This document shows, one piece after another, positions 49,729 to 63,732 of a stretch of 64,000 nt of DNA (position 1 is its first letter; each line of letters begins with the position of its first letter). Location: IMG/VR virus record IMGVR_UViG_3300036803_000040, positions 11,615 through 75,614 of that record; one strand, written 5' to 3'. The notes under the pieces were generated by a model. It ran no database searches and was not told where the DNA came from. It saw only the letters and a program-made list of their open reading frames with translations. Made by a program: the position numbers and the translations under genes. Source of the DNA: a virus (lineage: Duplodnaviria; Caudoviricetes).

Positions 49729-50751
49729 CTAGACGACGGTGCCGCCGGCGAAGTTCGCCTTGTTCATCCTCAGCTGCGCGTTGCTCTTCGCCTGAGCTCG
49801 CAGCTTGACGCGCTGCTGCTTCGCCGCGGCCCTGCTCGCCGGCGTGCTCTTCGTCCGGCTCGCCTTGATCGTCGCCTGCTTGCTCGTGATCGGGCCCGGC
49901 GCGATCGCCCTGGCGTTCACGTTCCCGCGCAGCGCCGCGAGCGTCTGCCGGCCAATCACCCCGTCGACCTGCAGCCCGTGCTGCTTCTGATAGTTGGTCA
50001 CCGCCGCCTGCGTCTGCGGCCCATACTTGCCGTCGGCGGGAATGTGCAGCTGGCGCTGCAGCGACTTCACCAGCGCCCCCTGCGACCCCTGGCCCAGCAC
50101 CCGCGGCGTCGACGTGCGCGAGCTCGAGCTCCGCGTGGAGTGCCGGCGCGACGTCGCCCGCGTGGCGCGCTTGCCGCCGGTCGTATAGCCGAACTTGCCG
50201 CCCCCAGCTCGAGGATGCTTGCTCGGGTTCCACGTCTTGTAGCCGGCCGCGAGCTGCTTCTGCGCGGCCGCGGCCTGAGCTGCGCCGCGGACCTGCGACT
50301 GCTGCGGCGTCTCGAGCGGCGGATTGAACGCCTCGAGCATCATCCCGATCCCCTCACGGACCGGCGACGGCTTCGTCCCCGGATGCGGCGGCGGCTTGCC
50401 CAACGGCAGCGCGGCCGGCTGCCGAGCTCCCGGCACCGCGCCGGGCCCCGGCGCCTGCTGCGCCTGCTTCATCGCCGCGGCCGCTTCCCGCTTGCGCTCG
50501 AGCGCGTGCTGCGCCGGCGTGTCGAGCTTCACGTCCCCCACGGGCGCCTTGACGTGCGCGCCACCGCCCTCCGGGGCGATGATCGCATGCGTCGGTGGCG
50601 TGCCGCCATGCGGGCGCACGACGCGCCCCACGACCGATTTCCCGCCCTTCACCGAGACGCGCACCCGATCGCTGCTCGTGAAATCCGAGTCCGGGAACTC
50701 CTGCGCCGGCGGCGGCGGAGCGAACCCCTCGAGCAGCATCGAGATGCCCAT
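49729..50751 (-). CDS. Head-region protein with SH3-like, HPR module and PG_binding_1 domain
   Basis: MLLEGF, MMLEAF, WNPSKHPRAGGGKF, GSQGALVKSLQ...DGKYGPQT.AAV..YQ...GL.VDG.IG..T. Confidence 0.8.
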   Translation of the reverse strand: MGISMLLEGFAPPPPAQEFPDSDFTSSDRVRVSVKGGKSVVGRVVRPHGGTPPTHAIIAPEGGGAHVKAPVGDVKLDTPAQHALERKREAAAAMKQAQQAPGPGAVPGARQPAALPLGKPPPHPGTKPSPVREGIGMMLEAFNPPLETPQQSQVRGAAQAAAAQKQLAAGYKTWNPSKHPRAGGGKFGYTTGGKRATRATSRRHSTRSSSSRTSTPRVLGQGSQGALVKSLQRQLHIPADGKYGPQTQAAVTNYQKQHGLQVDGVIGRQTLAALRGNVNARAIAPGPITSKQATIKASRTKSTPASRAAAKQQRVKLRAQAKSNAQLRMNKANFAGGTVV

Positions 50752-51566
50752 CAGCAGCCCTCGAGCAGCGCGCCGAGCGCCGACTCAGTGATCCGCCGAG
50801 CTCGAGCAGCCTTCTCGGCCGCGAGCTGCGCGTTCTGAAGCCTGTAGGCGTCCTGCACGACCTGACCGCGGTAGGCCGGATGCAACGGGCCGATCTTCGT
50901 CGCGTTGCTGTGATGAACGTCCACCGTCGTGCCCGTCACCGGATCGCGCAGCCGCAGATACCCGTTGCGCTGCAGGCCCGACACGGCACGCAGCTGCGGC
51001 TTGCTGTAGCCCTCCACCTTGCCGTTGACGATGCTCGGCGTCCGATACTGCGCGACGTCGCCAACCTTGAAACCGCCGTGACGATCCTGCTGCGGCGCCG
51101 GCGTCGCCCCGAACTCAAGCCCGTCCTTCTGAGCTCGCCGGATCGCATCCTCGGTCGGCGGCTTGTACGGCTTCGCTGCCGGCGCGTTCGGATCCAGCTT
51201 GCGCCGGCGCGACGTCTCAAGGTCCGCCTGCGCGCGGCGCCGGTCAGTCATGCTCATCGGCGTTTCGCCTTGACTACGCCACGCGGGCGATCGCGGTTCC
51301 GGAGCCTTCCCCGTCGCCAGATCCACCACCCGCTGCGCCCCAGCCCGATCGATCGCCGGACGTCCCGGCCGAGCTCGCACCGCGCCCTGAACGGCCGACA
51401 GCAGCCGCTCCCGGTCGAACGACGTGCCGCCCTGCACCGTCGTGACCTGCGTCTTGCCGTGCATCACGTGCAGCTCGCCGGCCACCCACCGGCCATGCCA
51501 ACCCCGCGGATGCTTCGCATCGCTGAACCCCTCGAGCAGCATCGTGATCGGCACGCCGGCCATCAT
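50751..51566 (-). CDS. Head-region protein with HPR module and SH3/KOW-like domain
   Basis: MLLEGFSDAKHPRGWHGRW; FKVGDVAQY...; ends LLEGC. Confidence 0.7.
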   Translation of the reverse strand: MMAGVPITMLLEGFSDAKHPRGWHGRWVAGELHVMHGKTQVTTVQGGTSFDRERLLSAVQGAVRARPGRPAIDRAGAQRVVDLATGKAPEPRSPAWRSQGETPMSMTDRRRAQADLETSRRRKLDPNAPAAKPYKPPTEDAIRRAQKDGLEFGATPAPQQDRHGGFKVGDVAQYRTPSIVNGKVEGYSKPQLRAVSGLQRNGYLRLRDPVTGTTVDVHHSNATKIGPLHPAYRGQVVQDAYRLQNAQLAAEKAARARRITESALGALLEGC

Positions 51567-51574
51567 AAGCCGCG

Positions 51575-51667
51575 TCAGCTGCGAAAGCCGCGGGCCCAGA
51601 CGCGGAGACGCCGCGCCCAAGAGCGCAGCATCTCCACCGCCATGTAGCTGATCGGGTCGACCCTCAT
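51575..51667 (-). CDS. 30-aa peptide
   Basis: MRVDPISYMAVEMLRSWARRLRVWARGFRS; TGATG overlap. Confidence 0.4.
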   Translation of the reverse strand: MRVDPISYMAVEMLRSWARRLRVWARGFRS

Positions 51668-52047
51668 CAGTCGTAGCTCGCGTACTGAGCTGGCGTCTCG
51701 AACCGGTCGTGCAACGCAACCGCCCCGTAGAACCGAGAGCCGGTGATCTTCTCGACGGCCTGACCGAACCGGCTATCGCTCGTCGCGACATAAGCGCCGC
51801 CCATCATCGGGCCCACCCCGGCCGGCGGGCGCAGCGGCTTGTATTCGCCGTCGACTTCCACCGCCGGCACGACGCGCGCCACGCCGGGAACGTTGCCCTT
51901 GAGCAGCAACGCCGCGGGGCGCGTCTCGTCGGGCTCGAATGGCCCCTCGACGTTGACGAGCGTGAGCGAGTCCTTCTCGCTCGAGACGCCACCGTTCGAG
52001 CAGTTGCCGATCCGCTTGTCCTCGAGTATCGACACGATCAGTCCCAT
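51667..52047 (-). CDS. Conserved phage hypothetical protein
   Basis: NCSNGGVSS...GPFEP...MMGG.Y..TSDSRF...YGAV.LHDR.E. Confidence 0.75.
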   Translation of the reverse strand: MGLIVSILEDKRIGNCSNGGVSSEKDSLTLVNVEGPFEPDETRPAALLLKGNVPGVARVVPAVEVDGEYKPLRPPAGVGPMMGGAYVATSDSRFGQAVEKITGSRFYGAVALHDRFETPAQYASYD

Positions 52048-52049
52048 CT

Positions 52050-52337
52050 CTACACCTCCCAGCCGGCGAGTGCCGCCGCTTCGTCGTTGGTCAAGATCCG
52101 CACCGACTCGCGGCCGGTCAGGAACCCCGTCAGGTAGTCGCTCCCGATGCCGCACACCGGCTCGACCACGCCGGCGCTCCACCCCTCGATCGCGGCGCTC
52201 ATCACGCTCCCGTCTCGCAGGTAGACCAGCAGCACGGGATCCTGCGGGTCCGTGCCGACGGTCACCTTGAGCCGTCTCCCGGCGTTCAGCGCGTCCCTCG
52301 CGCGCTGCACCGTCAGTCGATCGTTATCCGTACTCAC
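52050..52337 (-). CDS. Hypothetical protein
   Basis: 95-aa ORF. Confidence 0.65.
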   Translation of the reverse strand: MSTDNDRLTVQRARDALNAGRRLKVTVGTDPQDPVLLVYLRDGSVMSAAIEGWSAGVVEPVCGIGSDYLTGFLTGRESVRILTNDEAAALAGWEV

Positions 52338-52340
52338 TGC

Positions 52341-53021
52341 TCAGCCCTCCTCTGTCGGGCAGCTCGCGCACCGTGCGCCCTGCTGCCGGTTGTAACGGAT
52401 CATCGAGCCCTTCTCGAGCTCAGCGCCGCAGTCCTCACACGAGCTCGTGAACCGAGCCGTGATCATCCTGTCCCGCGGGCCCTGCACCTTCTCGCGCTGC
52501 AGACGCTCGAGACGCTGCCGCGCCTGCGTGATCTGCCCGCCGAGATTGGTCACCTTGTACTGAGCCGCACCCGCGGCCCGCATGACCTCCTCGCGCTCCC
52601 ATGCGCCCTTCGCGCGGAGCTCGGCACCGCCGGCCTTGCGGATCTCCGCGCGCTTGGCCTTGACCGCCTCACGCTCCCGCTCGAGCCCGGCCAGCTTCGC
52701 GGTCAGCCGCTCGATCGCGTCCGGATCGTCATCGTAGATCGCGCGCTCGGCCTGAGCTCGGATCTCCTCCGCCGCGCCGGCCTGCCGTGCCGCCTTCCGG
52801 CTCAGCTCGAGCGACGCGTCCGCTGCGTTGCGAGCTCGCTCGAGCGCCTTCTCGTGACGCCGCTGCGAGTGATGCCCGACCAGGATCGGCTGCCCGAACG
52901 GGATCATCGCCGTGGCCGCGCGGCTCGCCTCGTGCGCCGCGTCACCCTTCGACGCGTTCCCCGAGCTCCAACCGTCCAGCCTGTCCGCTCGAGCCAACCT
53001 GCGTTCGCGGTAGGTCGTCAT
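52341..53021 (-). CDS. DUF3560-like protein with C-terminal Zn ribbon
   Basis: RERR..RA.R...IPFGQPILVGHHSQRRH...I.LDDPDA.E.L..KL; CEDC...RC..C. Confidence 0.8.
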   Translation of the reverse strand: MTTYRERRLARADRLDGWSSGNASKGDAAHEASRAATAMIPFGQPILVGHHSQRRHEKALERARNAADASLELSRKAARQAGAAEEIRAQAERAIYDDDPDAIERLTAKLAGLEREREAVKAKRAEIRKAGGAELRAKGAWEREEVMRAAGAAQYKVTNLGGQITQARQRLERLQREKVQGPRDRMITARFTSSCEDCGAELEKGSMIRYNRQQGARCASCPTEEG

Positions 53022-53215
53022 CCCGTCATCTCCATGATCGTGCTCGTCTCGGCCTCGTGCTCGCCGTCCGCGCTACCGGCCTCGACCGCGGCCATGCACC
53101 CGCTGTTGCCCGCTTCGTACTCCACCCACGCGCCGTCGACGTCTTCCCTGACGGTCTGGCCGCAGTAGATGCAGACGCCCTCTCTGCGGCGCGTCTGCTC
53201 GGTTCCCTTATCCAT
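53018..53215 (-). CDS. Small Cys-containing hypothetical protein
   Basis: AGAAAGGAG RBS; CIYCG. Confidence 0.65.
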   Translation of the reverse strand: MDKGTEQTRRREGVCIYCGQTVREDVDGAWVEYEAGNSGCMAAVEAGSADGEHEAETSTIMEMTG

Positions 53216-53252
53216 CTCACCTTCTCCTTTCTGAGCCTCCCGGCCCACTAGG

Positions 53253-53270
53253 GATGATAACAGGTTTATC
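53253..53270 (-). promoter_or_regulatory. 18-bp repeat copy 1 (GATGATAACAGGTTTATC)
   Basis: Identical at five intergenic sites; TATCAT -10 on the minus strand. Confidence 0.8.
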
Positions 53271-53275
53271 GCGTG

Positions 53276-53761
53276 TCAGCTGCTCCTCTCGTCGCCGGCG
53301 ATGCCGACGCAGCGCCACCCCTCAGCGGCCTTCGCGCCCTGCCGGAAGACCGTGACGTAAGCGCTCGCCGCTCCGCTCAGCCCCGTCCCCGATGCGGCGA
53401 TCGCCGCGCCGGCCGCGGCCCGCTCGACGATCTCCGTCGTGCGATACCCGCGCCTGGCCAGCGCCTTCGCCGAGCTCCCCGTGGGGATCCACTCGCCGGC
53501 GCCCGTCAGCCACTTCTCGCCGTAGCGGGTCTGGCAGACCTTCGCCTCGACGGCCGCGCCCTCGAGCGTGACCAGCGCCGTCCGGGCGAACAATGCCGTC
53601 CCGCCGGCCTCAGCGATCTCCGCCTGCGTGTCCTTCAACCGAGCGGTGATCCCGCTCGCCCACTGCGACAGGAACCCGTCCGTGTCGCAACGCTCGAAAC
53701 TCGCCGCGGCCTCCGCGCGACAAGCCGCCGCCTGCTCCCTCAATTCGCTCGCCGTACCCAT
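53276..53761 (-). CDS. Hypothetical protein
   Basis: SFERCDTDGFLSQWA motif; strong RBS. Confidence 0.75.
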   Translation of the reverse strand: MGTASELREQAAACRAEAAASFERCDTDGFLSQWASGITARLKDTQAEIAEAGGTALFARTALVTLEGAAVEAKVCQTRYGEKWLTGAGEWIPTGSSAKALARRGYRTTEIVERAAAGAAIAASGTGLSGAASAYVTVFRQGAKAAEGWRCVGIAGDERSS

Positions 53762-53793
53762 CCGATCACCGCCTTTCTCTCGTTTGCAGACCT

Positions 53794-53811
53794 GATGATA
53801 ACAGGTTTATC
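53794..53811 (-). promoter_or_regulatory. 18-bp repeat copy 2
   Basis: GATGATAACAGGTTTATC. Confidence 0.8.
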
Positions 53812-53817
53812 GCCCGG

Positions 53818-54804
53818 CTACGCCTCCGCGGCGAGCTCGAGCCCGCGCAGGATCCGCTCGCGGTCTGCCTGCTCGAGCGCCACCTCACGCCGATAGACGT
53901 CCAAGTCGATCTCGCTGCGGATCGCCTCCCGCACCGTGTCCGCGAGCAGCTCCGGAGGCATCGCCTCGAGCTGACACGTCTCGCCCGTCCAGTTGCGTGA
54001 GCGCGTGTCGCTTTTCTTCGGCGGCGCCGTCGGGAGATCATTCTCATAGACCTGATCCTCGGTCAGCGCCACACGCACCGGCCGCAGCTCGGGCGAACGC
54101 TTGCCCGTGACGATCTCCATCACCTGCTCCTCCTCGAGCGACATCGCCTTACCCAGCGCGATCGCGTTCTCGGGATCGTCGTTCACCTGCGCCGCGTGCA
54201 CGAGCTGGCGCACGAACATCCGCGCGTCCTGCGCCATCGCCGTGAAGATCGACTCGCCCGACGGGTCATAGTCGCCGCAGTGCAGGAACACCGTCGGCAC
54301 GTCGCGCAGCAGAGCTCGCTTCGCGATCTCCCACGTCACCGTCACGCTCGAGAACCCACCCGTCGAATAGATCGGCACGCTGAACGGATACGCGACGCGC
54401 TGCATCTGCGGCACCATGCCGGCCGCTTCGCACCAGAGCTCGATCGCGACATCCTGGCCGGCGAGCCGGTGCCTTGAGTAGTGCTCGACGTCGCTCTGCA
54501 CGCCCTCCCAGAAATCCGCCACGTCAGCGAACGTCTGCGGCTCACCGCCGGCGGTCCCGTCATCACGGATCGCCCCGAACGAGATCATCCCCGCCCGGCG
54601 AGCTCGCACGAGCATCTCGCACAGCCGCGCGTAAGCCTGCTCGGTCTTGTCATAGCCGTACTGGCCGACCAGCCGGTAGAACACCTGGCGGACCGTCAGC
54701 GGCAGGAACTTCTGATACTCCTCGAGCACCGAGTCGACCTGATCCAACAGCGCGAGCGTCTCCACTCGCGGCTCCCACGTCGCAAACCCACGCGGTCTAG
54801 CCAC
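53818..54804 (-). CDS. Toprim-domain protein (TopoVI-A/Spo11/JetD-like)
   Basis: LTVRQVFYRLV, ELWCEA, GGFSS, LHCGDYDPSG, RVALT..Q, LEAMPP. Confidence 0.8.
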   Translation of the reverse strand: MARPRGFATWEPRVETLALLDQVDSVLEEYQKFLPLTVRQVFYRLVGQYGYDKTEQAYARLCEMLVRARRAGMISFGAIRDDGTAGGEPQTFADVADFWEGVQSDVEHYSRHRLAGQDVAIELWCEAAGMVPQMQRVAYPFSVPIYSTGGFSSVTVTWEIAKRALLRDVPTVFLHCGDYDPSGESIFTAMAQDARMFVRQLVHAAQVNDDPENAIALGKAMSLEEEQVMEIVTGKRSPELRPVRVALTEDQVYENDLPTAPPKKSDTRSRNWTGETCQLEAMPPELLADTVREAIRSEIDLDVYRREVALEQADRERILRGLELAAEA

Positions 54805-55114
54805 GGGACATCACCTCCTCGATCGTCTGTTTGAACTTGCCGGCGATCGCCGGCGGGAACGCCTCGAGCACCTCCTCGAGCTCGCCGCTTCGATAGTCAC
54901 CGTCGAGCTCGCCGGGCCCGTGGAACGCCGCGGCCCACTCACTACGCGGCGGGCGGGCATCCTCGTGCCAGCCCGTCCCGTCGGTCGACCACATGCCAGG
55001 GAACCGCTCCTCGTCCCGGAGGATCTCCGTCTGCGGGCCCCACACCTGATAAGAGACGCGGCCGGCGTCGAGCGTCCAGCCCGGCCCGTGGAATCGCATC
55101 GCCTCGATCTTCAT
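54797..55114 (-). CDS. Hypothetical protein
   Basis: 105-aa Trp-rich ORF. Confidence 0.65.
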   Translation of the reverse strand: MKIEAMRFHGPGWTLDAGRVSYQVWGPQTEILRDEERFPGMWSTDGTGWHEDARPPRSEWAAAFHGPGELDGDYRSGELEEVLEAFPPAIAGKFKQTIEEVMSRG

Positions 55115-55506
55115 GCCGGCACCTTGTCGCTGTACCGGACGCCGGCCTTCGGGCGCCTGTAGAGCTCACAGTCGCGGTTATGACACGTGCCGGCCCACGA
55201 CCCGAACGTGTCGATCGGCCAGCCGCACGTCTCGCAGTGCGAGTGCGCCGCCGACACGCCCGTGTTGCATTTCGTGCAGCGCCCGTACTCCTCGAGCTCC
55301 GCAGCCTCACGAGCTCGAGCCTCCGCCGCCGCGCGCAGCTGACTCTCATAGCGCTTGAAATCGTCGCCGGCCTGCCCCGCCGCGTCGACCGCCCGCGCCA
55401 GATGCGCCTTCAACGTCCGGTCGACGTCGCCGGCGAGCTCATACGCCTCACGCGTCAGCTGCTCGGCGTTCGCCAGCTTGCGCCGGATTCGCTCGGCCTT
55501 ACTCAT
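55111..55506 (-). CDS. Coiled-coil plus Zn-ribbon protein
   Basis: CTKC...CETC...C...C. Confidence 0.7.
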   Translation of the reverse strand: MSKAERIRRKLANAEQLTREAYELAGDVDRTLKAHLARAVDAAGQAGDDFKRYESQLRAAAEARAREAAELEEYGRCTKCNTGVSAAHSHCETCGWPIDTFGSWAGTCHNRDCELYRRPKAGVRYSDKVPA

Positions 55507-55512
55507 CCTCGC

Positions 55513-55734
55513 TCACCTCTTCCACGGTTCGATGATCTTCACGTCCGGCCCGTAGGCCCTGCGCAGCACCCGACGGAGCTCGGCGATCGAGCGGTTGTCG
55601 AACTGCCGCGGCAGCGTCCGGTCGCCGATCTGGATCGTGTCCGGACCGGTCGCCTGATACAGCCACGACCACGCCGGGCCAGGCCGCGGCCGCGACGGGT
55701 AGACCTTGACTCGAGTGATCGTGATCTCGGTCAT
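55513..55734 (-). CDS. Hypothetical protein
   Basis: 73-aa ORF. Confidence 0.65.
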   Translation of the reverse strand: MTEITITRVKVYPSRPRPGPAWSWLYQATGPDTIQIGDRTLPRQFDNRSIAELRRVLRRAYGPDVKIIEPWKR

Positions 55735-56051
55735 GCCGCCATCGCGATCCGCAGCTGCCGGGCGGTCCCGATCTCGCGCTTGATCTCCTGCGCCATCTTG
55801 ACCACCTCACGCTGCTCCGCTCGAGCCGCCTTCAGCGTCCGCAGCGTCATGTTGTCCTGCGTGACGAACCGGCCCGTGACTCGCGTCGCGGCCTGCATCC
55901 CCCGGACCAGCTGCGCGCCGTGAATGCCGCAGCAGTAGAAGGGCCCGCCGCAACACTCGATCGAGCGGATCCCGTACTCGATCGCGCTCAGCGTCTCCGT
56001 CGCCTCGATGTACTCCTGAATGGCGCCCTGCGCCTTCGATGCGGTATCCAT
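55731..56051 (-). CDS. Hypothetical protein
   Basis: GAAGGA RBS before MDTASK, downstream of repeat copy 3. Confidence 0.7.
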   Translation of the reverse strand: MDTASKAQGAIQEYIEATETLSAIEYGIRSIECCGGPFYCCGIHGAQLVRGMQAATRVTGRFVTQDNMTLRTLKAARAEQREVVKMAQEIKREIGTARQLRIAMAA

Positions 56052-56097
56052 CGTGTCACCGTCCTTCGGTCGGGGTTTCTCTCTCACCTGCACCAGC

Positions 56098-56115
56098 GAT
56101 GATAACAGGTTTATC
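56098..56115 (-). promoter_or_regulatory. 18-bp repeat copy 3
   Basis: GATGATAACAGGTTTATC. Confidence 0.8.
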
Positions 56116-56318
56116 GGCGGCGTGCGATCACGCGGCGGATCACGAGCAGCCCCCACGAGCTCGTCAACCGGGCCCGGAATCGGCAGCAGCGCGACCACCA
56201 GCGCCGCCTTCTCATACCAGCGCGCCTCGCGCCACACGCCGCGGATCAGGCCGGCGTGCGCCCGGACCAGCAGCAGCACGCCGGCGATCGCCGCGGCCAG
56301 CAGCACCGTCTCGATCAT
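56111..56318 (-). pseudogene. Small membrane protein with an apparent extra G in a G5 run
   Basis: Removing one G at 56150-56154 gives ...PIPGPVDELVGLLVIRRVIARRR-TAA. Confidence 0.5.
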
Positions 56319-56413
56319 CGCGGCCGCTCCTCGCTCGAGACGAACCGCTCCGGGTCAAGCCGGAACGCCCACGCGACCAACCTGTCCGCGATCAGGGCTC
56401 GCAGCCCTGCCAT
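56315..56413 (-). CDS. 32-aa peptide
   Basis: MAGLRALIADRLVAWAFRLDPERFVSSEERPR; coupled to both neighbours. Confidence 0.45.
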   Translation of the reverse strand: MAGLRALIADRLVAWAFRLDPERFVSSEERPR

Positions 56414-56995
56414 CTAGCTCACCGCCTTCCCTGCCGCGATCGCCCGCTCGGTCTGAGCGAACAGCACGACCCTGTAGTTGCCGCCGTCGCCGCCGGCAGC
56501 CTCGAACTCCTCGATCGCGGCCATCGCCCGCTTCGCGCGATAGGCCACCGAGATCACCGCCTCTTTCTCGACGCCCATCGCCAGCCAACCCAGCTCGCCG
56601 ACCGCCTTGCAGCGGGCCTCGTTCTGGACCGCCTCGTCGTCGGCGGGGACCAGCTTCACGCCCTCGCCCTCGAACTTGCGCTGATCGCGCTGCTCGAACG
56701 TCCACTGACCGGGCAGTCCGTCGATCTCGACGATCTCGCCGAGCTCGATCCTGCGCGCCGCCATGTACTCAGCGTGCGCCTGCCCGGTGTTGTCGATCAC
56801 CGCTGCGTGCACCGTGGTGAACGCCCAAGGTCCGGGGATCTCCGGGCCGCTCTGCTCCTGTCGCGCCTTGCTGCCGGCGGGGACGACGCACACGTTGCAC
56901 TTGCCCCATCGCGCCCCGGTGACCACGATGTCGCCGGTCTTCAGCAGCTCGCCGTAGCGATCCATCTCCGTCGCGAGCTTTGTTGCCGTACCCAT
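56414..56995 (-). CDS. Hypothetical protein
   Basis: 193 aa, strong RBS, downstream of repeat copy 4. Confidence 0.75.
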   Translation of the reverse strand: MGTATKLATEMDRYGELLKTGDIVVTGARWGKCNVCVVPAGSKARQEQSGPEIPGPWAFTTVHAAVIDNTGQAHAEYMAARRIELGEIVEIDGLPGQWTFEQRDQRKFEGEGVKLVPADDEAVQNEARCKAVGELGWLAMGVEKEAVISVAYRAKRAMAAIEEFEAAGGDGGNYRVVLFAQTERAIAAGKAVS

Positions 56996-57032
56996 CTCAC
57001 CGTCTCCCTTCGTTGCTTACCGGTCCACCCGT

Positions 57033-57050
57033 GATGATAACAGGTTTATC
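57033..57050 (-). promoter_or_regulatory. 18-bp repeat copy 4
   Basis: GATGATAACAGGTTTATC. Confidence 0.8.
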
Positions 57051-57063
57051 AGCGGCGCGAGCT

Positions 57064-57264
57064 CTACTCGATGAACACCGCGTAGACGCCCTCCGCCGCC
57101 GGCAGCGCCGGCCGCTCAACCTGCTCAGCCGCGATCCACTCCACGCCGCCCCACTCCTCGAGCAGCTGCAGAGCTCGCGTCGGCGAGTCCGCGGCCACGA
57201 GCGCCTCCGCGTGATCCCCGACGATCGCGAACCACACGAGCAGGCTCAGCAGCTCGTCAGGCAT
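57064..57264 (-). CDS. Hypothetical protein
   Basis: Trimmed to MPDELL. Confidence 0.55.
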   Translation of the reverse strand: MPDELLSLLVWFAIVGDHAEALVAADSPTRALQLLEEWGGVEWIAAEQVERPALPAAEGVYAVFIE

Positions 57265-57469
57265 CGTCTGCCGCCGCCTGCAGCATCCGCTGATGCTTGG
57301 CGCTGGCCACGTGCCGGCGCACCGCCGCGACCGCGCGCGAGTGCTCGATCGGCTCCCCGCGGTAGCCGCACGGCTCGCACACCGCAACCATGCCGCCGTA
57401 GATCGCCCGCGGGTCGCCCCAATCCACGCCGGCCGGGTCGCCGGCGATCGGATGCTCGAGCTCAACCAT
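57257..57469 (-). CDS. C2H2-like Zn-finger peptide
   Basis: CEPC...H....H. Confidence 0.55.
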   Translation of the reverse strand: MVELEHPIAGDPAGVDWGDPRAIYGGMVAVCEPCGYRGEPIEHSRAVAAVRRHVASAKHQRMLQAAADDA

Positions 57470-57779
57470 TCGGCCGTCTCCCACTCCCGCCGCACCGATA
57501 GCACGTGTACCCCGGCCACTCCGCACGACCGCCGGCGCCACCGCATCGCGGGCACGCGCCGGGATCCTCGAGCGACGTCTCCGCTTCGCCCCGGACGATC
57601 AGCACGCGATCGTGCCGCTCGAGCTCGAACCCCTCGAGCGCCGCGGCCGCATCCTCGAGCGTGCCGCCGTAGCCGCGCCGGACGATCACGCCGCCGCCCT
57701 GCGCAGGCCACACGCAGCCATTCCAGCGCAGACCAGCCCGCCGCAGAGCTCCTCGCACGTTGTCGCTGTTGGCGATCAT
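57462..57779 (-). CDS. Protein with CxxCxGxG Zn finger
   Basis: CPRCGGAG...CYRCGGSG. Confidence 0.65.
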   Translation of the reverse strand: MIANSDNVRGALRRAGLRWNGCVWPAQGGGVIVRRGYGGTLEDAAAALEGFELERHDRVLIVRGEAETSLEDPGACPRCGGAGGRAEWPGYTCYRCGGSGRRPNG

Positions 57780-58498
57780 CCGATGTCCATCGTCAGGTTG
57801 CGAGCTCGACCGCAGTAGTCCAGCCCATCGGCCAGGTAGGTGTCCTTGAACTTGGCCCACTTGCTGCCGTCCACCGAATCGGCCTGCAGCACGTCTCGGC
57901 AGTAGTCCAGCCGGCGCAGCGTGTTCACCCTGCCGACGTGCACCCACTTGCCGCGCTGCTGCGCTTCGCGGGTCAGAGCTCGCGCTGCGGGCCCCAGCTT
58001 CCAATCGGTGTCGCCGCCGATAAACAGCGCGTCGATCCGGTGCCAGCTGCGCTCAAGCCACGCGGGCATCTCCTCGAGCCCGTTCTGTGCGACCAGCGCG
58101 ACGGGGATCCCGCGGCGCTCTAGCGCCGGCGCGTGGATCTCGAACATGCGAGCCGTCTCGCGAGCGTCGGCCACCTTGTCGGGAACCGTCGCCCACAGGC
58201 AACCGTCGAGCCCGGTGATGCGGTCCAGCATCCGCTGCCAGGCGATCGCGTCCAAGCCCTGAAAGCAGTCGTTGTCAGCGGCCCAGCTGATGCCCGCCTC
58301 GTCGGTCGCCTCGATCGAGCTCGTGTGCCGCGGCTGTATCAGCCGGCCCATCGCCGGGTGCGCGTAGCGCTCGAAGTCGGGATGGCCTGTCGTGACCAGC
58401 AGCAGCATCCGCTGCGTGCGCAGTCTCGAGAGATCCTGAGCTGTCAGGCGATCGGTTGCGGCCGCTTGCGCGGCCGCGGTCATCGTTGCGGTTGCCAT
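57776..58498 (-). CDS. TGT/DpdA-like TIM-barrel protein (putative base-exchange enzyme)
   Basis: WAADNDCF...VPDKVADA..T...VAQNG...LFIGG..DWK...KWVHVGRVN...DSVDGS. Confidence 0.65.
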   Translation of the reverse strand: MATATMTAAAQAAATDRLTAQDLSRLRTQRMLLLVTTGHPDFERYAHPAMGRLIQPRHTSSIEATDEAGISWAADNDCFQGLDAIAWQRMLDRITGLDGCLWATVPDKVADARETARMFEIHAPALERRGIPVALVAQNGLEEMPAWLERSWHRIDALFIGGDTDWKLGPAARALTREAQQRGKWVHVGRVNTLRRLDYCRDVLQADSVDGSKWAKFKDTYLADGLDYCGRARNLTMDIG

Positions 58499-58503
58499 CT
58501 CAG

Positions 58504-58812
58504 TCACCCCGCCTGGACGATCTTGCGGGACTTCTCGCCAACCCACCCGTGCGCCCCGGTGGAGCGTTCGTAGTAGATCCAGCCCTCGCCGGCGTACTCC
58601 TGGCCGGTCGCCCACTCGGCGATGACCCCGCGGCCGTCCTCGGTGGCCGTCCAAGTCTCAGCGATGACCTCGCCGGCGATGATCGCCTCGATGCCGAACT
58701 CGGCCTCCGCTGCCTTGCTCCACCCGCACTGCGTAACGATCAGCTCGCCGCAGATGTTGGCGGAGTAGACCTTCTGAGTCGTCCCCGTCACCTGCTCGGT
58801 CGCCGTACTCAC
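58504..58812 (-). CDS. Hypothetical protein
   Basis: GAAAGGAGG RBS, downstream of repeat copy 5. Confidence 0.75.
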   Translation of the reverse strand: MSTATEQVTGTTQKVYSANICGELIVTQCGWSKAAEAEFGIEAIIAGEVIAETWTATEDGRGVIAEWATGQEYAGEGWIYYERSTGAHGWVGEKSRKIVQAG

Positions 58813-58873
58813 TAGGCCCTCCTTTCCGGGCCCTCCGGTCGGGCCCTTCGGTGTCTCCCTGAACCTGCACCAC

Positions 58874-58891
58874 GATGATAACAGGTTTATC
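58874..58891 (-). promoter_or_regulatory. 18-bp repeat copy 5
   Basis: GATGATAACAGGTTTATC. Confidence 0.8.
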
Positions 58892-58911
58892 GGCAGCGTG
58901 CCGAGACAGAG

Positions 58912-58940
58912 CTCGAGCTCCGCGACGAACGGAGCTCGAG
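58912..58940 (-). terminator. Hairpin separating the head transcript from the accessory island
   Basis: CTCGAGCTCCG-cgacgaa-CGGAGCTCGAG, followed by CTCTGTCT on the minus strand. Confidence 0.55.
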
Positions 58941-59070
58941 TTTCCTGCCTCTGAGTTTGGGCCTCGTCACCGTGCTCGCGGACCGTCGCCCGGCCGTCGG
59001 CACACTCCCTACGGCTTACCGCTCCACCCCCGCGGGAGGCTTCAACGCGTGCGCCGGGCCCGTGGGAAGA

Positions 59071-59241
59071 TCAGACCGTCGGCGTCGCGCCCTCGAGCTT
59101 CTCGAGCGCCCGCACGATCGCCGGCTTCTCCGCCGGCTGCGCGCCGTAGCTCTCATCCGGCACCGACTGCGCCGCACCGATCAGCGCCTCGCGCTCGTCA
59201 TCCTCGAGCGCCTCGACCTGCCACTTCTGTCCCTCTCCCAT
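59071..59241 (-). CDS. 56-aa hypothetical protein
   Basis: Manual translation MGEGQKWQVEALEDDERE...; GGAGG RBS. Confidence 0.6.
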   Translation of the reverse strand: MGEGQKWQVEALEDDEREALIGAAQSVPDESYGAQPAEKPAIVRALEKLEGATPTV

Positions 59242-59250
59242 CACAGCCTC

Positions 59251-59448
59251 CTATGGCGTCCCTGGCGGTGCCAGCGGCGCCTTCGCGGTCGCATTCGCCT
59301 CATCGGACCCGAACGCCGGCAGCTTGTCGATGTCGACGCGCTCACCCCCGACGATCAGCGGCTTCGCGTATGCGCCCTTGAGTTTCTTCTCGCCCCAATC
59401 GCCGACATCGTTCCCGCCGGCAGCCTTGATCTCCTCGTGAGTCGGCAC
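59251..59448 (-). CDS. Hypothetical protein
   Basis: 65-aa ORF. Confidence 0.6.
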   Translation of the reverse strand: MPTHEEIKAAGGNDVGDWGEKKLKGAYAKPLIVGGERVDIDKLPAFGSDEANATAKAPLAPPGTP

Positions 59449-59454: not shown

Positions 59455-61485
59455 TTACCCCTTCGCCTTGTCCAAGAATCGCTGATACATCGCAGCGTGT
59501 TTGATCACGAGCTTATCAGCGCCGCGTGCGCGCTCGGCGATCACGCTGTTCGGCCGCGCCGTCGTGTCCACGATCTGCAGATGGATGCCGGGGATCTTCG
59601 ACACGTCCTCGACGAACCGCCGCGACACCTCCGCGTGCGCATCCTTGAGAAACTGATCGGGCACGTACCGCCCGCCCTTATCGCCGCGGGCCTTGGCCCT
59701 GGCCATCGCCGTCTTCACGTCCGTCGTGGCGTAGTGCACGCTGACCTCGTGGCCGGCGCGCTGCGCCTGGCGGATCTTGCCGGCGAACTTGTCCGGGCCC
59801 GAGTCGCCCACCGTGTCGACGAGAATGTGATGCTGCCGGCCGAGCGCCAGCTTTGTCAGCACCTTCGCGAGATGCGACGCCTCCTCGTGCGTCGCGTTCG
59901 ACGCATCCTTGCGGCCGGCGTCGACCATCTGCTGATACTCCGGGAGCATCGCCCGGATCGTGTCCGGGTCGGCGTTCACGACATCCTTGGGCAGCGTCAG
60001 CATCCCGAACTTCTCGAGCCCCGACTTGCCGGATGCCGGCCCGCCGGCGGTGAAGATCGCCCTGGCCTTCCCCTCGTGACGCGCCTTGCCCTGCAGCATG
60101 TTCGTGAGGATCTGCTCGTGCAACGCCTGGCGCTCGGGACTGTAGGCACCCAGCGAGCCGTCAGCGTTGACCAGCCGGTGCGCGTGCTCGGTGTCGGCGA
60201 CCTTGCCGGCCATGATGTCCTTCCCGGCCTTCAGCGCGCTCGAGCTCCACTTCCCCGTCCCGACCGAGCTCGCGAGCTTGCCCAGCGGGATCTGCGGCTT
60301 GCTGGCCAGCGCCCGCGTCGCCGCGTTGGCCGGGTTGCGCCTGCCGCCCTCATAGCTCTGATGCGCCGCAGAGCGGATCCGTGACGCGCTCGAGCTCGGC
60401 CGGCTCTCGATCGCGGCGCGAGCTCGGGCGCCGCCCGTCGTCCACTTGCCGCCGAACCCGCGGAGCTCGTCCGGGTGGAACGCCTCCGCGATCAGATCAA
60501 AAGGGTCAGCGCGGCGTGCCTCCTGCACACGCCGCAGCGGTGGGATCTCGGTGCTCGAGACGGTCATCAGATCAAAGCGCAGCGCCTCCGCGACCTGCTC
60601 AACCTTGCTGTCGCGCTCCGGTGTCGTCGGCGCCGGCGGCAGCCCCGCAGAATGCCGCGCCGCCTGCTCAGAGCTGAACTGCTTGTAGCTCGTCTCACCG
60701 CTGTAGCTGTGCGGGTCAGCCACCAGGAACTTGCCGACCGTCGGCAGCGTGATCACCCTGGCCGGCGCCTCCTCGAGATGCGACTGCAACGCCTTGAGTG
60801 CATCGTCCCGGCTCGCGCAGTTGTAGTCGGTCACCCGCTTGCCGTTGACCGCGAACGCCGCGTGCTGATTGGGCTCGCGCTTGCCGTTGATCCCGCCGTA
60901 GCCGCGGCGCTGCGCGACCGTCCCGACATGCTGGCCACCGTCATAGACCTCGTGGCGATCGACCTCGTTCGACGCGCTGGCCGTCCGCTTCAGCGTCGGC
61001 TTCCACGCCGCCGCCTCACGCAGCACACCCTCGCCGAGCAGGCCGATCAGCCCGTCGACGCCGACCACCTCCTCGAGCAGCAGGATCCGGCCCATCGCGT
61101 CACGCTCGGCGAGACGCTCATCCGCCCACGTGGCCACGTAGCGGTCCGCCTCCTCGATCCACGATTCCTTGACCGCGCCCTTCGCGGCGTTTCCGGCTTT
61201 CTTGGCCTCCCACTCAGCGACGGCCTTCGCTGCCGCGGCCTGCGTGTTGGCGTCGACCTTCCCGCCGCCGGCAGCCCACCGCTTCACCACGCCGATCGCC
61301 TTCTGGATCGCGCTTGACTCGTCGCTGGCGCCCGAGCGCAGGATCCCGTGCGCGACGTGCTGAATGTAGTCCGGCAGCCCGCCGGCGCGCGCCACCCAAT
61401 TGCTCGTCTTCGACGTCGAGAACGGCTGCGGCGTGCTGGCCTTGACCAGCGAGTCTGCAGCCTCCCGTAGCGGCGCCAGGGTCAT
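59455..61485 (-). CDS. Head-region multidomain protein with C-terminal zeta-toxin-like P-loop kinase
   Basis: N-terminal NWVARAGGLPDYIQHVAH helical domain; AIFTAGGPASGKS, NADPDTIR, HEEAS, ILVDT, ARAKAR..KGGRYVP. Confidence 0.85.
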   Translation of the reverse strand: MTLAPLREAADSLVKASTPQPFSTSKTSNWVARAGGLPDYIQHVAHGILRSGASDESSAIQKAIGVVKRWAAGGGKVDANTQAAAAKAVAEWEAKKAGNAAKGAVKESWIEEADRYVATWADERLAERDAMGRILLLEEVVGVDGLIGLLGEGVLREAAAWKPTLKRTASASNEVDRHEVYDGGQHVGTVAQRRGYGGINGKREPNQHAAFAVNGKRVTDYNCASRDDALKALQSHLEEAPARVITLPTVGKFLVADPHSYSGETSYKQFSSEQAARHSAGLPPAPTTPERDSKVEQVAEALRFDLMTVSSTEIPPLRRVQEARRADPFDLIAEAFHPDELRGFGGKWTTGGARARAAIESRPSSSASRIRSAAHQSYEGGRRNPANAATRALASKPQIPLGKLASSVGTGKWSSSALKAGKDIMAGKVADTEHAHRLVNADGSLGAYSPERQALHEQILTNMLQGKARHEGKARAIFTAGGPASGKSGLEKFGMLTLPKDVVNADPDTIRAMLPEYQQMVDAGRKDASNATHEEASHLAKVLTKLALGRQHHILVDTVGDSGPDKFAGKIRQAQRAGHEVSVHYATTDVKTAMARAKARGDKGGRYVPDQFLKDAHAEVSRRFVEDVSKIPGIHLQIVDTTARPNSVIAERARGADKLVIKHAAMYQRFLDKAKG

Positions 61486-61592
61486 GTCAGCACCAGCGCC
61501 ACGAGCAGCCCGACGATCCCGCCGGCGACAAAGCCCTCCCACCAGGCATGGCGCAGACGACGCTCAAGCGGCCGGTGAATCCCTGCCGTCAC
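61482..61592 (-). CDS. 36-aa single-TM peptide
   Basis: MTAGIHRPLERRLRHAWWEGFVAGGIVGLLVALVLT; ATGA overlap. Confidence 0.5.
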   Translation of the reverse strand: MTAGIHRPLERRLRHAWWEGFVAGGIVGLLVALVLT

Positions 61593-61594: not shown

Positions 61595-61738
61595 TCAGTA
61601 GTAGCGCCGGCCGACGCGCGCCGTCCCCAGCGCGTAGAGCACAACGCCGACGATCAGCAGGATGATGCCGATCGTGTAGAGGATCGGGATCGCGGCCACC
61701 AGGCCGATGATTAGGAGAACCAAGCCGAGAATGATCAT
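61595..61738 (-). CDS. 47-aa membrane protein (DUF6131-like)
   Basis: MIILGLVLLIIG...ILYTIGIILLIVG...VGRRYY. Confidence 0.7.
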   Translation of the reverse strand: MIILGLVLLIIGLVAAIPILYTIGIILLIVGVVLYALGTARVGRRYY

Positions 61739-62106
61739 GCGGCAGACCGTACCGCGGGCGCCATCTCGATACCCCGCGCCGCCGGCCGGTGATCCGCGGC
61801 GCTGAGCAGCAGCGTCACCTTCAGCACGGCGAGCTCGCGGCGTGTCGGCGGACGGTCCTGATACGCCCGACGGAAGCCGTCACGCACCCCGTAGATCGCC
61901 ACCTGCCAGCCCGCGCGATCGCTCGAGTCGCTCGGCCAGCGCACCGCGCCCGCCGGCGGATCCGGCGTGTTGGACAGGATCGTCCGCTTCCCCGGCCGGA
62001 TCGCTCGCTCCCACGCCTCATCGAACGACAGCCCCTCGATCTTCGCCTCGAGCAACAGCCGTGTCAGCTGCTCGTGCGGGAGCTCATACAGACGCTTGGG
62101 CGCCAC
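61735..62106 (-). CDS. Hypothetical protein
   Basis: GGAGGT RBS before GTG 62106. Confidence 0.6.
   Translation of the reverse strand: MAPKRLYELPHEQLTRLLLEAKIEGLSFDEAWERAIRPGKRTILSNTPDPPAGAVRWPSDSSDRAGWQVAIYGVRDGFRRAYQDRPPTRRELAVLKVTLLLSAADHRPAARGIEMAPAVRSAA
61746..61775 (-). promoter_or_regulatory. Late-type promoter GGGGTAT-N17-TACGGT
   Basis: 7 nt before ATG 61738. Confidence 0.6.
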
Positions 62107-62233
62107 TCCTACCTCCATCTCGAGATTGATCATCGGGCAGCTCGAGCTCGGCCGGCACCCCGTCGGCCTCGTCATGCGCCACAGCCACCCACTTGCCGGC
62201 CACCACGACATACGCCCGGCCGTCCTTCGGCAT
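62084..62233 (-). CDS. Small hypothetical protein
   Basis: MPKDGRAYVVVAGKW... Confidence 0.4.
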   Translation of the reverse strand: MPKDGRAYVVVAGKWVAVAHDEADGVPAELELPDDQSRDGGRSGAQASV

Positions 62234-62259
62234 CGGCCCCGCCGCCGTGCCTCCCAGCC

Positions 62260-63732
62260 TCACGCGGCCACCTTCGGCACGCCACGCGACTCGATCGGCC
62301 TGGCCTTCACGCCGACCTGATCGTTGTACTCGTGCATCAGCTCGAGCATTCGGCCAGTCCCGGCCGAGAACCGGAGCGCCTGCACCGTGTAGGCCGGATT
62401 GCTCATCTGATGCAGCGCAGCCGCGGCCCACCGGTGATGCCCGTCGAGCACGTGGCGCTCGCTGCTGATCAGCATCATCCCGCCCTTCTGCGGATCCCAG
62501 CCCTTCGCCAGCGCCGCCACGGCGCCGCCGTTGATCTGATCCTGCGTCGCCTGCAGCTCGCTCGGCGCGATCGTCTCGACCTCCGCCGTCACGCGCTTGC
62601 CGCGCAGGAACTTCATAAAGCCCTGCAGGTTGTCCTTCGGGATCTGCGGCATCTCCGACCGGTGCAGCGCTCGAGCGTGCGACCGGAATAGGTTGGCGTG
62701 ATCACCGACCTGCAGCAGATGCAGCGACGATGCTGTGCCGTCCCCGAGCTCGTCGACGAGCTGCTCCGCGTCTTTCGGGGCGATCGCCGCCGGCAGCCCG
62801 CGCTTGAGCGCCGTCGCGGCCTCTTTGGGCGCCATGAACGCGTCGGTCACCCGGAACTCGCCGCGGTAGCCGCGGGGATGCTTGACCGGATCGAACGCCT
62901 CGCTGACGCCGGCGAACGGGATCGCCGCCACGTCCATGCCCATCTCGAGCAGCTGATCGCGGACGTCGAGCTCGGCCAGCAACGCGTCCGCCTCGTCGGC
63001 CTCCATCACCACGCCCGACGCTGCGCGCACTGCGTCGCGCGTGTCCGGCACGTCGCTCGGGCGCATCCACCCCTCGAGGATCGCCTCGCCGTAGCTGTGC
63101 AGGCTCGAGGTGCAGCCGTAGTGCCGCGGCGGATGCACTCGATCGAGCACCGCCCACGGCCAGAACTTGCCGGCCATGAACTTGCACGCCTCCGTGTGCT
63201 TCTGAGCATGCCCCAGCTTCCAGAACGCGCCGAGCGGCGACACCTGGCGCAGCTGCGAGCGTGTGACCGCGGCGATCGCCCTGGCCACCATCGCCTCCGC
63301 CCGCTGGCGTGCGTAGCGCTCCTCATCGGCGAGCAGCTGCCGGATCTTGGCCTGGCGCTCGTCGGGATCCTTGATCCGGAGCGCCTGCGGCATCGCGCTC
63401 GCCAGGCGGTCCGCGGCGTTCTTAGCGAACTCCTGCTCGAGCACCATCTCCTGCCGTGCGACCTCCGCTACATCGTCGCGCTGGCCCCCGTAGCTGCCGA
63501 GCTCGGCTGTCAGCCATGCCTGATGCTGCGCGCGCAGCTGCGCCAGCCACGAGACGAACCCCCCCAGAATCGCCGCGGCGGCGACACTCACCCCGCCAGC
63601 GCCGGCGAGCGCTGCCGCCGGCGGTACGACCGTGCCCGCGGCCGCGCCAACCCCGACCACCGCGGCGCCCGTGGCCGCGGCCCTGCGAGCTCGCCGCGGC
63701 GGCTGCTGTTGCGCTGCCGGCGGCTGAGCCAC
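62260..63732 (-). CDS. MuF-like head morphogenesis protein fused to HPR module and ParB-like domain
   Basis: FWKLG..KHTEAC..MAG...HPPRHYGC; EAFDPVKHPRGYRGEF; SELQATQDQI...VLDGHHRWAA. Confidence 0.8.
   Translation of the reverse strand: MAQPPAAQQQPPRRARRAAATGAAVVGVGAAAGTVVPPAAALAGAGGVSVAAAAILGGFVSWLAQLRAQHQAWLTAELGSYGGQRDDVAEVARQEMVLEQEFAKNAADRLASAMPQALRIKDPDERQAKIRQLLADEERYARQRAEAMVARAIAAVTRSQLRQVSPLGAFWKLGHAQKHTEACKFMAGKFWPWAVLDRVHPPRHYGCTSSLHSYGEAILEGWMRPSDVPDTRDAVRAASGVVMEADEADALLAELDVRDQLLEMGMDVAAIPFAGVSEAFDPVKHPRGYRGEFRVTDAFMAPKEAATALKRGLPAAIAPKDAEQLVDELGDGTASSLHLLQVGDHANLFRSHARALHRSEMPQIPKDNLQGFMKFLRGKRVTAEVETIAPSELQATQDQINGGAVAALAKGWDPQKGGMMLISSERHVLDGHHRWAAAALHQMSNPAYTVQALRFSAGTGRMLELMHEYNDQVGVKARPIESRGVPKVAA

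Follow-up and report, generated by a model that had tools for sequence, protein, structure and literature searches.

Glutamate junctions and a KHPR header at the cassette boundaries of putative head cargo proteins in a metagenomic tailed phage

The stretch of DNA analysed here (hereafter, the window) comprises 64,000 nucleotides (nt) of a tailed soil phage (Duplodnaviria; Caudoviricetes) and corresponds to positions 11,615 to 75,614 of the IMG/VR record IMGVR_UViG_3300036803_000040. Its head locus contains four proteins of 490, 695, 271 and 340 amino acids (aa) that are built from cassettes, and two short peptide signals are found at the cassette boundaries: (i) a glutamate junction, which is particular to the family of this phage and has the form h-x-E-(S/A/G), 3–8 residues, (L/M)-L-E-(G/A)-F (h, hydrophobic; x, any residue), and (ii) a header centred on K-H-P-R, which recurs in a wide range of phages. 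From this architecture, we infer a locus of head cargo composed of junction, header and effector cassettes that would be packaged, cleaved and delivered, a reading towards which the balance tips only slightly. The motifs, their statistics and conservation, the swapping of modules at the junction, and the distribution of the header are direct observations; the fold of the protease is taken from a structural model.

As the initial annotation had noticed, the four minus-strand proteins share a short module, present in three canonical copies, K-H-P-R-x3-G-x-(F/W), and one divergent copy. A six-frame regex scan of the window finds K-H-P-R within real coding frames in three places only (490-, 271- and 340-aa genes; Table 1), each time followed by x3-G-x-(F/W); a fourth match, at 15473–15484 on the plus strand, lies in a non-coding frame. 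In the divergent copy of the 695-aa gene, E-L-R-G replaces K-H-P-R. The module usually stands right after an h-h-E-(A/G)-F site, as had also been described: directly in three of the four copies, and 35 residues after it in the 340-aa protein. A header hidden Markov model (HMM) built from 116 motif instances of other phages, run on the six-frame translation of the genome, matches only the three canonical copies (E 1e-12, 1e-7 and 5e-7 for the 340-, 271- and 490-aa proteins, respectively). The 695-aa copy scores 1.8 bits and fits a divergent subtype, F-N-P-G-E-L-R-G-F-H-G-x-W, which is also found in the relatives P0021 and P0032. Since the DNA of the window copies is only 39–63% identical, with different Pro and Arg codons, conservation acts at the protein level and the peptide itself is selected. 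On the same identity values, recent gene conversion was set aside as the origin of the copies. Self-cleavage at the header was set aside, as candidate nucleophile residues are not invariant, and so was a 2A-like translational skip, which would be senseless for N-terminal copies.

The glutamate junction and its predicted protease

Sites of the form h-x-E-(A/G/S) exceed the expectation from composition in the 503-aa protein (15 vs 2.7), the 695-aa protein (9 vs 2.4), the 271-aa protein (3 vs 0.6), the 340-aa protein (3 vs 0.4) and the major capsid protein (3 vs 1.4), where all three lie inside the first 47 residues. When six head proteins are pooled, 36 sites stand against 9.6 ± 3.0 in within-protein shuffles, a count not attained in any of 1000 shuffles; the remaining 85 of the 91 proteins hold 52 sites against 67.5 expected, a number that 985 of 1000 shuffles reach. 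Controls in which P1 is Asp or Gln, or P1′ is charged, show no enrichment. L-x-E sites had been pointed out in the scaffold and the capsid leader, on the understanding that they should be commoner there than in non-structural proteins; they are indeed present and statistically enriched, and the comparison falls out in that direction. Their scarcity outside the head proteins may reflect avoidance of protease sites.

The full bipartite junction, a pattern defined after inspection of the data, has five occurrences in the genome, where shuffles average 0.37, and all of them are in head proteins: in the capsid propeptide, at the C-terminus of the 503-aa protein, and in the 340-, 271- and 695-aa proteins. 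Among the relatives, P0002, P0006, P0007, P0008, P0023 and P0025 have the junction at every module boundary, and each of their N-termini follows M-x3-5-L-L-E-G-F. The 340-aa protein begins with M-G-I-S-M-L-L-E-G-F and the 271-aa protein with M-M-A-G-V-P-I-T-M-L-L-E-G-F, a start that gives it 271 instead of 346 residues according to the profile of GC content at third codon positions and in agreement with the database gene call P0004. With this corrected start, two cargo proteins begin with an h-L-L-E-G-F peptide; a comparable N-terminal tag, G-L-I-G-x-L-A-E-A, is borne by proteins of the related phage L009. As in the capsid-targeting type known from T4, unrelated proteins thus start with a peptide of about 10 residues that ends in a predicted protease site. 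At its C-terminus, the 271-aa protein reads I-T-E-S-x4-L-L-E-G-C. The exact DNA pattern for E-(A/G)-F-x3-K-H-P-R-G has only five loci in IMG/VR, two of them real, which makes the combination of glutamate site and KHPR specific to the family.

The gene at 47030–48541 had been put forward as that of the protease, and structural modelling supports this assignment: it encodes a domain predicted to have the T4 gp21/assemblin fold. This N-domain of the 503-aa protein is highly conserved and modelled by AlphaFold2 (AF2) with pLDDT > 90, whereas the C-half is helical and scaffold-like. In the VIA structural search, which covers 48,161 chains and is not reliant on Foldseek, the best match is T4 gp21 (5jbl_A; Z 8.7, root-mean-square deviation 3.6, 121 of 165 residues aligned), followed by the varicella-zoster virus protease (Z 6.9); the top rows of Foldseek for the 503-aa model are herpesvirus proteases, with weak scores (E 0.03). 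Among 49 homologues, H103, S174, D102, S208 and D210 never vary and H172 hardly does, and H103 and S174 are candidate catalytic residues on the basis of this conservation. Despite the poor conservation of the C-half, its sites at residues 250, 406, 440 and 486 are kept in 69–79 of 92 aligned homologues, down to about 35% identity. We read the 503-aa protein as an assemblin-fold protease–scaffold fusion that is predicted to cleave after Glu. In the capsid protein, Pfam Phage_capsid_4 covers aa 54–369, and the boundary preceding it, L-x-E-(G/S)-(T/G)-G-(S/A)-P-E-G-R-A-D-F, is common to the window phage and its relatives L007 and L009.

The KHPR header and the exchange of cassettes

In the consensus of the header, A-x-(W/F)-(D/N)-(E/A/P)-S-K-H-P-R-x3-G-(K/R/Q)-F-G-x-G-G, the residues H, P, R and G are invariant. 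A word search with the module profile retrieved 105 proteins, and a HMMER pass over 1.84 billion representatives yielded 1,568 at E ≤ 1e-3, including 229 at E ≤ 1e-10, with up to 18 matched stretches in a single protein (P0206; 7,334 aa). The median distance between copies, 265 residues, is the size of a domain; by comparison with Pfam coordinates, the header occupies the gap before each Pfam domain. At least 41 residues (median 365) follow the last copy, and the header is never C-terminal. The first copy lies inside the first 40 residues in 44 of 140 proteins, and of the 75 evaluable copies in sequenced-genome prophages, 23 begin no more than 5 residues from the initial Met of a single-domain open reading frame (ORF). 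From this placement before domains, and often at the N-terminus, it follows that the element is a header and not a trailer, needing nothing upstream. The exact canonical DNA pattern was found in at least 120 stretches of species genomes and at least 102 of IMG/VR; among the matches listed, the species genomes include Chloroflexota, Bacteroidota, Firmicutes, Desulfovibrio, alpha- and betaproteobacteria, Actinobacteria, Verrucomicrobia and Planctomycetota.

For the domains that accompany the module, whose diversity an HMM search had been proposed to survey, ART, zeta, GNAT, NUDIX and Acb1 are examples. A scan for co-occurring families in 79 header-bearing proteins found the head families MuF (11 proteins), portal, and the prohead proteases DUF2213, Mu-like_Pro, S78 and S78_2, together with the effector families ART, NUDIX, GNAT, zeta toxin, Acb1, InPase, 2H phosphoesterase and topoisomerase IB; no conjugation genes were found among these 79. 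The word-search matches add lambda-, Mu- and HK97-type portals as well as capsid fusions, and P0001, which has ParB, GNAT and kinase domains, is encoded between genes for MuF and a prohead protease. Three header-bearing polyvalent proteins (among P0212–P0324) have an Acb1 anti-CBASS phosphodiesterase domain, and others NUDIX, InPase or topoisomerase IB domains, which are candidates for pre-packaged counter-defence enzymes. In Neisseria prophages (P0070 and about 30 proteins), a DUF2213 head-maturation protease bears an N-terminal KHPR header and an LPD3 domain.

The initial annotation had taken KHPR as part of the glutamate cleavage motif, and this is where it has to be revised. That both would be a single merged signal, recognised or cut by the protease, is suggested by the three window copies directly following h-h-E-(A/G)-F and by the 5–12 residues preceding the core, which are conserved inside a lineage and differ between lineages. 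However, the invariant core occurs together with at least five unrelated or divergent prohead-protease families; it is often located at the very N-terminus, where there is nothing to remove; in the PG-binding module, 35 residues separate it from the glutamate site; and the sites of scaffold and capsid protein do without KHPR. A merged signal is therefore quite unlikely: because of its occurrence with so many protease families, the core is not a Glu-protease site but an independent, pan-phage header, and the two signals are merely adjacent in the family of the window phage.

No model in Pfam, NCBIfam or PHROGs covers the header. A tblastn search of isolated phages with a 29-residue consensus and P0001 found no proteomically studied header phage, although such a search is too insensitive for a short motif, and an apparent example from E. 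coli had no match in complete E. coli genomes. Printed-motif searches did not find the header in the literature, and there is no mention of it in PMC5512222, PMC5576092 or PMC11699363.

The four window proteins are modular, with the module at the cassette boundaries, and relatives carry different cargo domains at the same junction, both as anticipated. This becomes most evident in the 490-aa protein. Most of its 30 homologues have 270–310 residues and end just past A-I-P-F-A-G; the window phage and four others extend there with h-x-E-(A/S)-F-x3-(K/E)-H-P-R-(G/D)-x2-G-x-(F/W) followed by unrelated domains, and one more homologue has a decayed header. The core of the protein is MuF-like. Its match to TIGR01641 (SPP1 gp7) is weak (aa 121–211, E 0.016, 15.6 bits against a cut-off of 39.65), and there is no Pfam match at E ≤ 0.01, including the MuF model PF04233; features of the MuF class are the position of its gene right after that of the portal and the existence of both core-only and cargo-bearing homologues. 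The C-terminal cargo of the 490-aa protein (aa 348–472) matches phrog_2859, a family of unassigned function, and contains a D-G-H-H-R core for which the ParB-like segment of P0030 gives an alignment (E 0.004). For this ParB/Srx-like domain there is no Pfam match even at E 1, and a PDB search with the 490-aa protein found no match.

In the 695-aa protein, the cargo is a Pfam Zeta_toxin domain (PF06414; aa 489–643, E 1.7e-25) with a visible Walker A motif, G-G-P-A-S-G-K-S. Its homologue in L007 has the same N-part, followed by a canonical KHPR header and an SH3-like region in place of the zeta kinase, while L009 has header, PG-binding domain, header and a RelA/SpoT-like domain (weak, Pfam E 0.11). 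Thus, among the effectors proposed initially, the zeta, PG-binding and SH3-like (Tudor/KOW-type barrel) assignments hold, and "ParB-like" is borne by the D-G-H-H-R core only.

The 271- and 340-aa proteins are free-standing cassettes. Ahead of its SH3-like domain, at residues ~185–200, the 271-aa protein has a second header in decayed form, D-R-H-G-G-F-K-V-G-D, where P0008 keeps an intact K-H-P-R-G-F-H-G-R-F-K-V-G-D; homologues of the 271-aa modules are fused in P0002 and P0008. In P0002 (878 aa), a KHPR-headed DUF3560 module is fused with homologues of the 271- and 340-aa proteins, which correspond to three separate genes in the window; there, the 271-aa gene ends in a junction and the 340-aa gene starts with one. 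The 340-aa protein contains PG_binding_1 (Pfam, E 8e-14), and the Pfam scan found no catalytic lysin domain in it. Its AF2 model is confident for the barrel (aa 29–76) and the PG-binding domain, for which VIA returned Tudor/KOW-type barrels (Z 7–8.5) and an endolysin PG-binding domain (Z 10.6), respectively. The junction (aa 122–143; pLDDT < 50) and the header (aa 178–187; pLDDT ~50) are less well defined, and tag, junction and header are predicted from this model to be disordered, lying between confident domains. In the header, W174, K178–R181, G185 and F187 are invariant among 17 homologues.

Cargo is swapped exactly at the header, and the same modules are fused or split among relatives, as would be expected of a joint for cassette shuffling—a recombination landmark without a biochemical role of its own. 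Yet, the low DNA identity of the window copies, the writing of invariant residues in different codons and the persistence of these residues across phyla of very different GC content point to selection on the peptide and make this explanation very improbable.

Predicted packaging pathway and genome setting

In the pathway that we propose, each cassette would consist of a disordered, family-specific junction, mostly a pan-phage KHPR header of the form (W/F)-x3-K-H-P-R-x3-G-x-(F/W), and an effector domain; the effectors would be a zeta-type kinase, a ParB/Srx-like domain, a PG-binding domain and SH3-like barrels in the window, and RelA/SpoT-like or DUF3560 domains in relatives. The junction peptide would double as the N-terminus of free-standing cargo genes (M-x3-8-L-L-E-G-F). 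Cargo may enter the procapsid either by fusion to the MuF-like 490-aa protein or the 695-aa protein, or by means of the N-terminal tag, as in T4. The gp21/assemblin-fold N-domain of the 503-aa protein would then cleave the junctions, the scaffold tail of its own protein and the capsid propeptide, in each case behind Glu, and the modules would be freed. A cut at the first Glu of a junction would leave an N-terminus like that of a free-standing cargo gene, and a cut at the second would remove the tag, following the capsid-targeting logic of T4.

Being located C-terminally of the predicted cut, the header would remain on each mature module, and one header per domain is sensible only if modules separate and each needs a tag of its own. 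The header may therefore be a per-module address tag, most likely acting after release, either in holding the module with the DNA or in keeping it exit-competent at ejection; we regard this role as possible rather than probable. Equally tentative is the generalisation that (W/F)-D-E-S-K-H-P-R-x3-G-K-F-G-x-G-G is a universal portable tag of tailed-phage modules that travel in the capsid and are delivered with the DNA.

A loading role is nearly as likely as a post-loading role. In the form that the KHPR header itself is the capsid-loading signal, docking cargo to MuF, portal or protease in the procapsid interior while the glutamate junctions only trim and separate, we give it a smaller though appreciable chance. 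The N-terminal siting of many headers, including the 23 of 75 prophage copies next to the first Met, is where a loading tag would be needed; the header accompanies MuF in 11 of the 79 scanned proteins and also portal and protease domains, and multiple copies could add avidity for very large proteins. Against this, the header is kept where fusion to a portal, MuF, protease or capsid protein already assures loading, and it is because of this persistence that the post-loading role is favoured. Moreover, the family of the window phage has a separate N-terminal tag, some modules are tagged without KHPR, and the possible head partners are very diverse in sequence.

The proteins could, instead, be toxins or wall-binding proteins that are expressed late, exert their effect in the producer cell or from it, and are freed at lysis, with the motifs as flexible linkers. 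The biological role of MuF toxins has been stated as unknown (PMC11699363), an accessory island parts some of the genes in question from the capsid genes, and PG-binding domains are typical of endolysins. This explanation is nevertheless unlikely in view of the many relatives in which cargo is joined in frame to a MuF-like, portal, protease or capsid protein, the glutamate sites shared with scaffold and capsid propeptide, and the missing catalytic lysin domain in the Pfam scan of the 340-aa protein.

Several points weigh against the cargo pathway as a whole. The presence of the proteins in virions and their cutting are putative, and the post-release role of the header is deduced from its position only. 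The likeness to gp21 is at the level of the fold: no sequence-level link of the 503-aa protein to gp21 emerged from searches of Pfam, PHROGs, NCBIfam or the PDB, where sequence and profile searches gave only coiled-coil noise. The excess of h-x-E-(A/G/S) could partly come from helical A/E/L-rich sequence, though the control patterns speak against that, and the bipartite pattern was a post hoc definition. With ~7.5 kb of accessory genes inserted into the head module, the 271- and 340-aa genes might not be head genes. Finally, KHPR is missing from a 3,799-aa virion protein of the F116-type Pseudomonas phage Epa33 ("structural protein 5"; L132:8548–19947), although this protein has the ParB-like domain in common with the 490-aa protein, so that not every packaged polyvalent protein needs the header.

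Most of a single contig of 75.6 kb and 69% GC falls inside the window, and the minus strand carries all genes of the genome. About 165 nt are repeated at both contig ends with one mismatch (window 63835–63999 and L001:2–170), so that the genome is circularly closed, or terminally redundant, with the portal gene spanning the ends. The large terminase, of the lambda gpA type, is encoded upstream of the portal. In minus-strand order, the head genes are those of the portal, the 490-, 158- and 695-aa proteins, then, after an island, of the 271-, 340-, 185-, 138-, 503- and 137-aa proteins and the major capsid protein. Portal stop (63733) and start of the 490-aa gene (63732) directly adjoin, and the C-terminal region of the portal has A-L-E-A and W-L-E-A sites. 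The accessory island (51667–59448, minus strand; ~7.5 kb), with about 20 small genes including that of a DUF3560 protein, splits the head module between the 695- and 271-aa genes; a comparable insert is present in L009 and none in L007. Both of these relatives are myoviruses with a sheath gene. There is no close isolated phage (best capsid identity ~25%), but there are many metagenomic relatives, one of them within a Solirubrobacteraceae metagenome-assembled genome. An actinobacterium is the probable host.

Table 1. Positions of the head-locus genes, junctions and headers in the window
Feature	Position	Strand	Remark
Portal gene 3′ end, lambda family (weak Pfam match)	63733–63999	-	remainder of gene at other contig end
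490-aa minor head protein: MuF-like core (~aa 1–275), junction and KHPR header (aa 276–293), ParB/Srx-like C-terminal domain (~aa 348–472)	62260–63732	-	
V-S-E-A-F junction, then K-H-P-R-G-Y-R-G-E-F header (490-aa)	62854–62907	-	motif HMM E 5e-7
K-H-P-R (490-aa)	62872–62883	-	regex scan
695-aa protein: conserved N-part, bipartite junction V-Q-E-A ... I-A-E-A-F, divergent header, zeta-toxin-type kinase	59455–61542	-	
I-A-E-A-F, then divergent header H-P-D-E-L-R-G-F-G-G-K-W (695-aa)	60442–60492	-	subtype also in P0021, P0032
DUF3560 protein, free-standing, without header	52341–53021	-	Pfam DUF3560, E 5e-28
271-aa cassette: N-terminal tag M-x7-L-L-E-G-F, KHPR header, domain without known family, SH3-like C-domain after decayed header	50751–51566	-	
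L-L-E-G-F, then K-H-P-R-G-W-H-G-R-W header (271-aa)	51486–51539	-	regex scan
K-H-P-R (271-aa)	51504–51515	-	regex scan
340-aa cassette pair: tag, SH3-like barrel, bipartite junction, helix, KHPR header, PG_binding_1	49729–50751	-	
N-terminal tag L-L-E-G-F, residues 6–10 (340-aa)	50722–50736	-	same tag in P0006, P0008, P0023, P0025
Bipartite junction V-R-E-G-x3-M-L-E-A-F (340-aa)	50326–50361	-	E140, F142 invariant in 17 homologues
KHPR header K-H-P-R-A-G-G-G-K-F (340-aa)	50191–50220	-	HMM E 1e-12
K-H-P-R (340-aa)	50209–50220	-	regex scan
h-h-E-(A/G)-F sites	62893–62907; 60478–60492; 51525–51539; 50326–50340; 50722–50736	-	sequence scan
503-aa protein: N-domain (~aa 52–222) with predicted gp21/assemblin fold, helical C-half with repeated h-x-E-(S/A) sites	47030–48541	-	
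C-terminal bipartite junction (503-aa)	47051–47086	-	
Major capsid protein; N-terminal propeptide ends at bipartite junction L-A-E-S ... L-E-E-G	45488–46615	-	junction at 46475–46516

Some neighbouring genes deserve mention. The 138-aa protein (48546–48962, minus strand) contains two tandem helix-turn-helix units and is encoded directly upstream of the protease–scaffold gene, an unusual location for a DNA-binding-type protein. The 185-aa protein (49075–49632, minus strand) has a signal-peptide-like N-terminus and a small Cys-flanked C-domain, with no Pfam match at E ≤ 1. Two small ORFs (57 and 65 aa; 59071–59448, minus strand) that lie immediately downstream of the gene for the zeta kinase may, in analogy to MuF toxin loci, be immunity genes.

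Relation to known systems and significance

The T4 internal proteins (IPI–III, Alt) have a capsid-targeting sequence that is removed by the prohead protease gp21 after (L/I)-x-E. The window phage resembles this system in the short N-terminal peptide ending in h-x-E, in a same-fold protease gene near the scaffold and capsid genes, in the same type of site in scaffold and capsid propeptide, and in the unrelated cargo domains. Unlike in T4, the junction has two parts and is found inside polyproteins as well, where it links cassettes; the protease forms one polypeptide with the scaffold and lacks detectable sequence similarity to gp21; the head is of the lambda type (gpA terminase, lambda-family portal, Phage_capsid_4); and the KHPR element is absent from the T4 system. 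In phiKZ-type phages, inner-body proteins are cut by gp175 at (S/A/G)-x-E. Common to both is a Glu-specific prohead protease, predicted in the window phage, that processes many head-internal proteins, while phage type and site consensus differ; we know of no KHPR element in phiKZ-type phages. The demarcation motifs of polymorphic toxins (VENN in contact-dependent inhibition systems, PxxxxDPxGL in Rhs) are likewise short conserved peptides at a boundary where variable domains swap, but they occur once per protein in secretion-system toxins. KHPR, in contrast, occurs once per domain, so that a protein can have up to 18 matched stretches, and is also placed N-terminally on single-domain phage proteins.

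MuF polymorphic toxins (SPP1 gp7/Mu F) are minor head proteins with toxin fusions (Jamet et al. 2017, PMC5576092; PMC11699363). Similar to these, the 490-aa protein is a minor head protein encoded after the portal with a variable C-terminal effector, and zeta kinase and ART cargo are known there as well. The differences are that the MuF-like core of the window phage is below the family thresholds and that the fusion point is a defined peptide which is also present on free-standing cargo genes; no junction motif for MuF toxins is described in PMC5576092 and PMC11699363. Polyvalent proteins (Iyer et al. 2017, PMC5512222) have been predicted to be packaged, processed and injected, with a zincin metallopeptidase domain as the proposed processing agent. 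The header proteins share with them the multiple effectors, the late or head gene contexts and the repertoire (DdrB-type ParB, ART-PolyVal, zeta kinase, GNAT, InPase, LPD3), but mostly lack a zincin domain, have one header per domain and, in the 79 proteins scanned, no conjugative-element context. The polyvalent arrangement, i.e., at least two unrelated effector domains in a late-gene context, is weakly developed in the window, with one or two cargo domains per protein, and fully in P0002 and P0001.

The general concept is, thus, already known from polyvalent proteins, MuF toxins and the capsid-targeting sequence of T4. What appear to be undescribed are the header motif, the bipartite glutamate junction of the family, and the fusion of a gp21-fold protease with the scaffold in a lambda-type head module.

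That phages inject proteins together with their DNA is known in outline from T4 internal proteins, P1 Dar proteins, N4 RNA polymerase, MuF toxins and polyvalent proteins. However, outside T4-like phages, we know of no sequence rule that tells which proteins are cargo and how they are separated or addressed. The present analysis offers two testable rules: a glutamate-junction code tied to a predicted gp21-fold protease in a lambda-type head, and a 20-residue header in more than 1,500 protein clusters. Were the header a mere linker, it would still mark cassette boundaries that are missed by current domain libraries. If it is an address tag, sequence alone would list phage-delivered effectors across phyla, including anti-defence Acb1, NUDIX and ART proteins, and the header would provide both a handle on a conserved partner and a tool for loading engineered or foreign cargo into phage heads.

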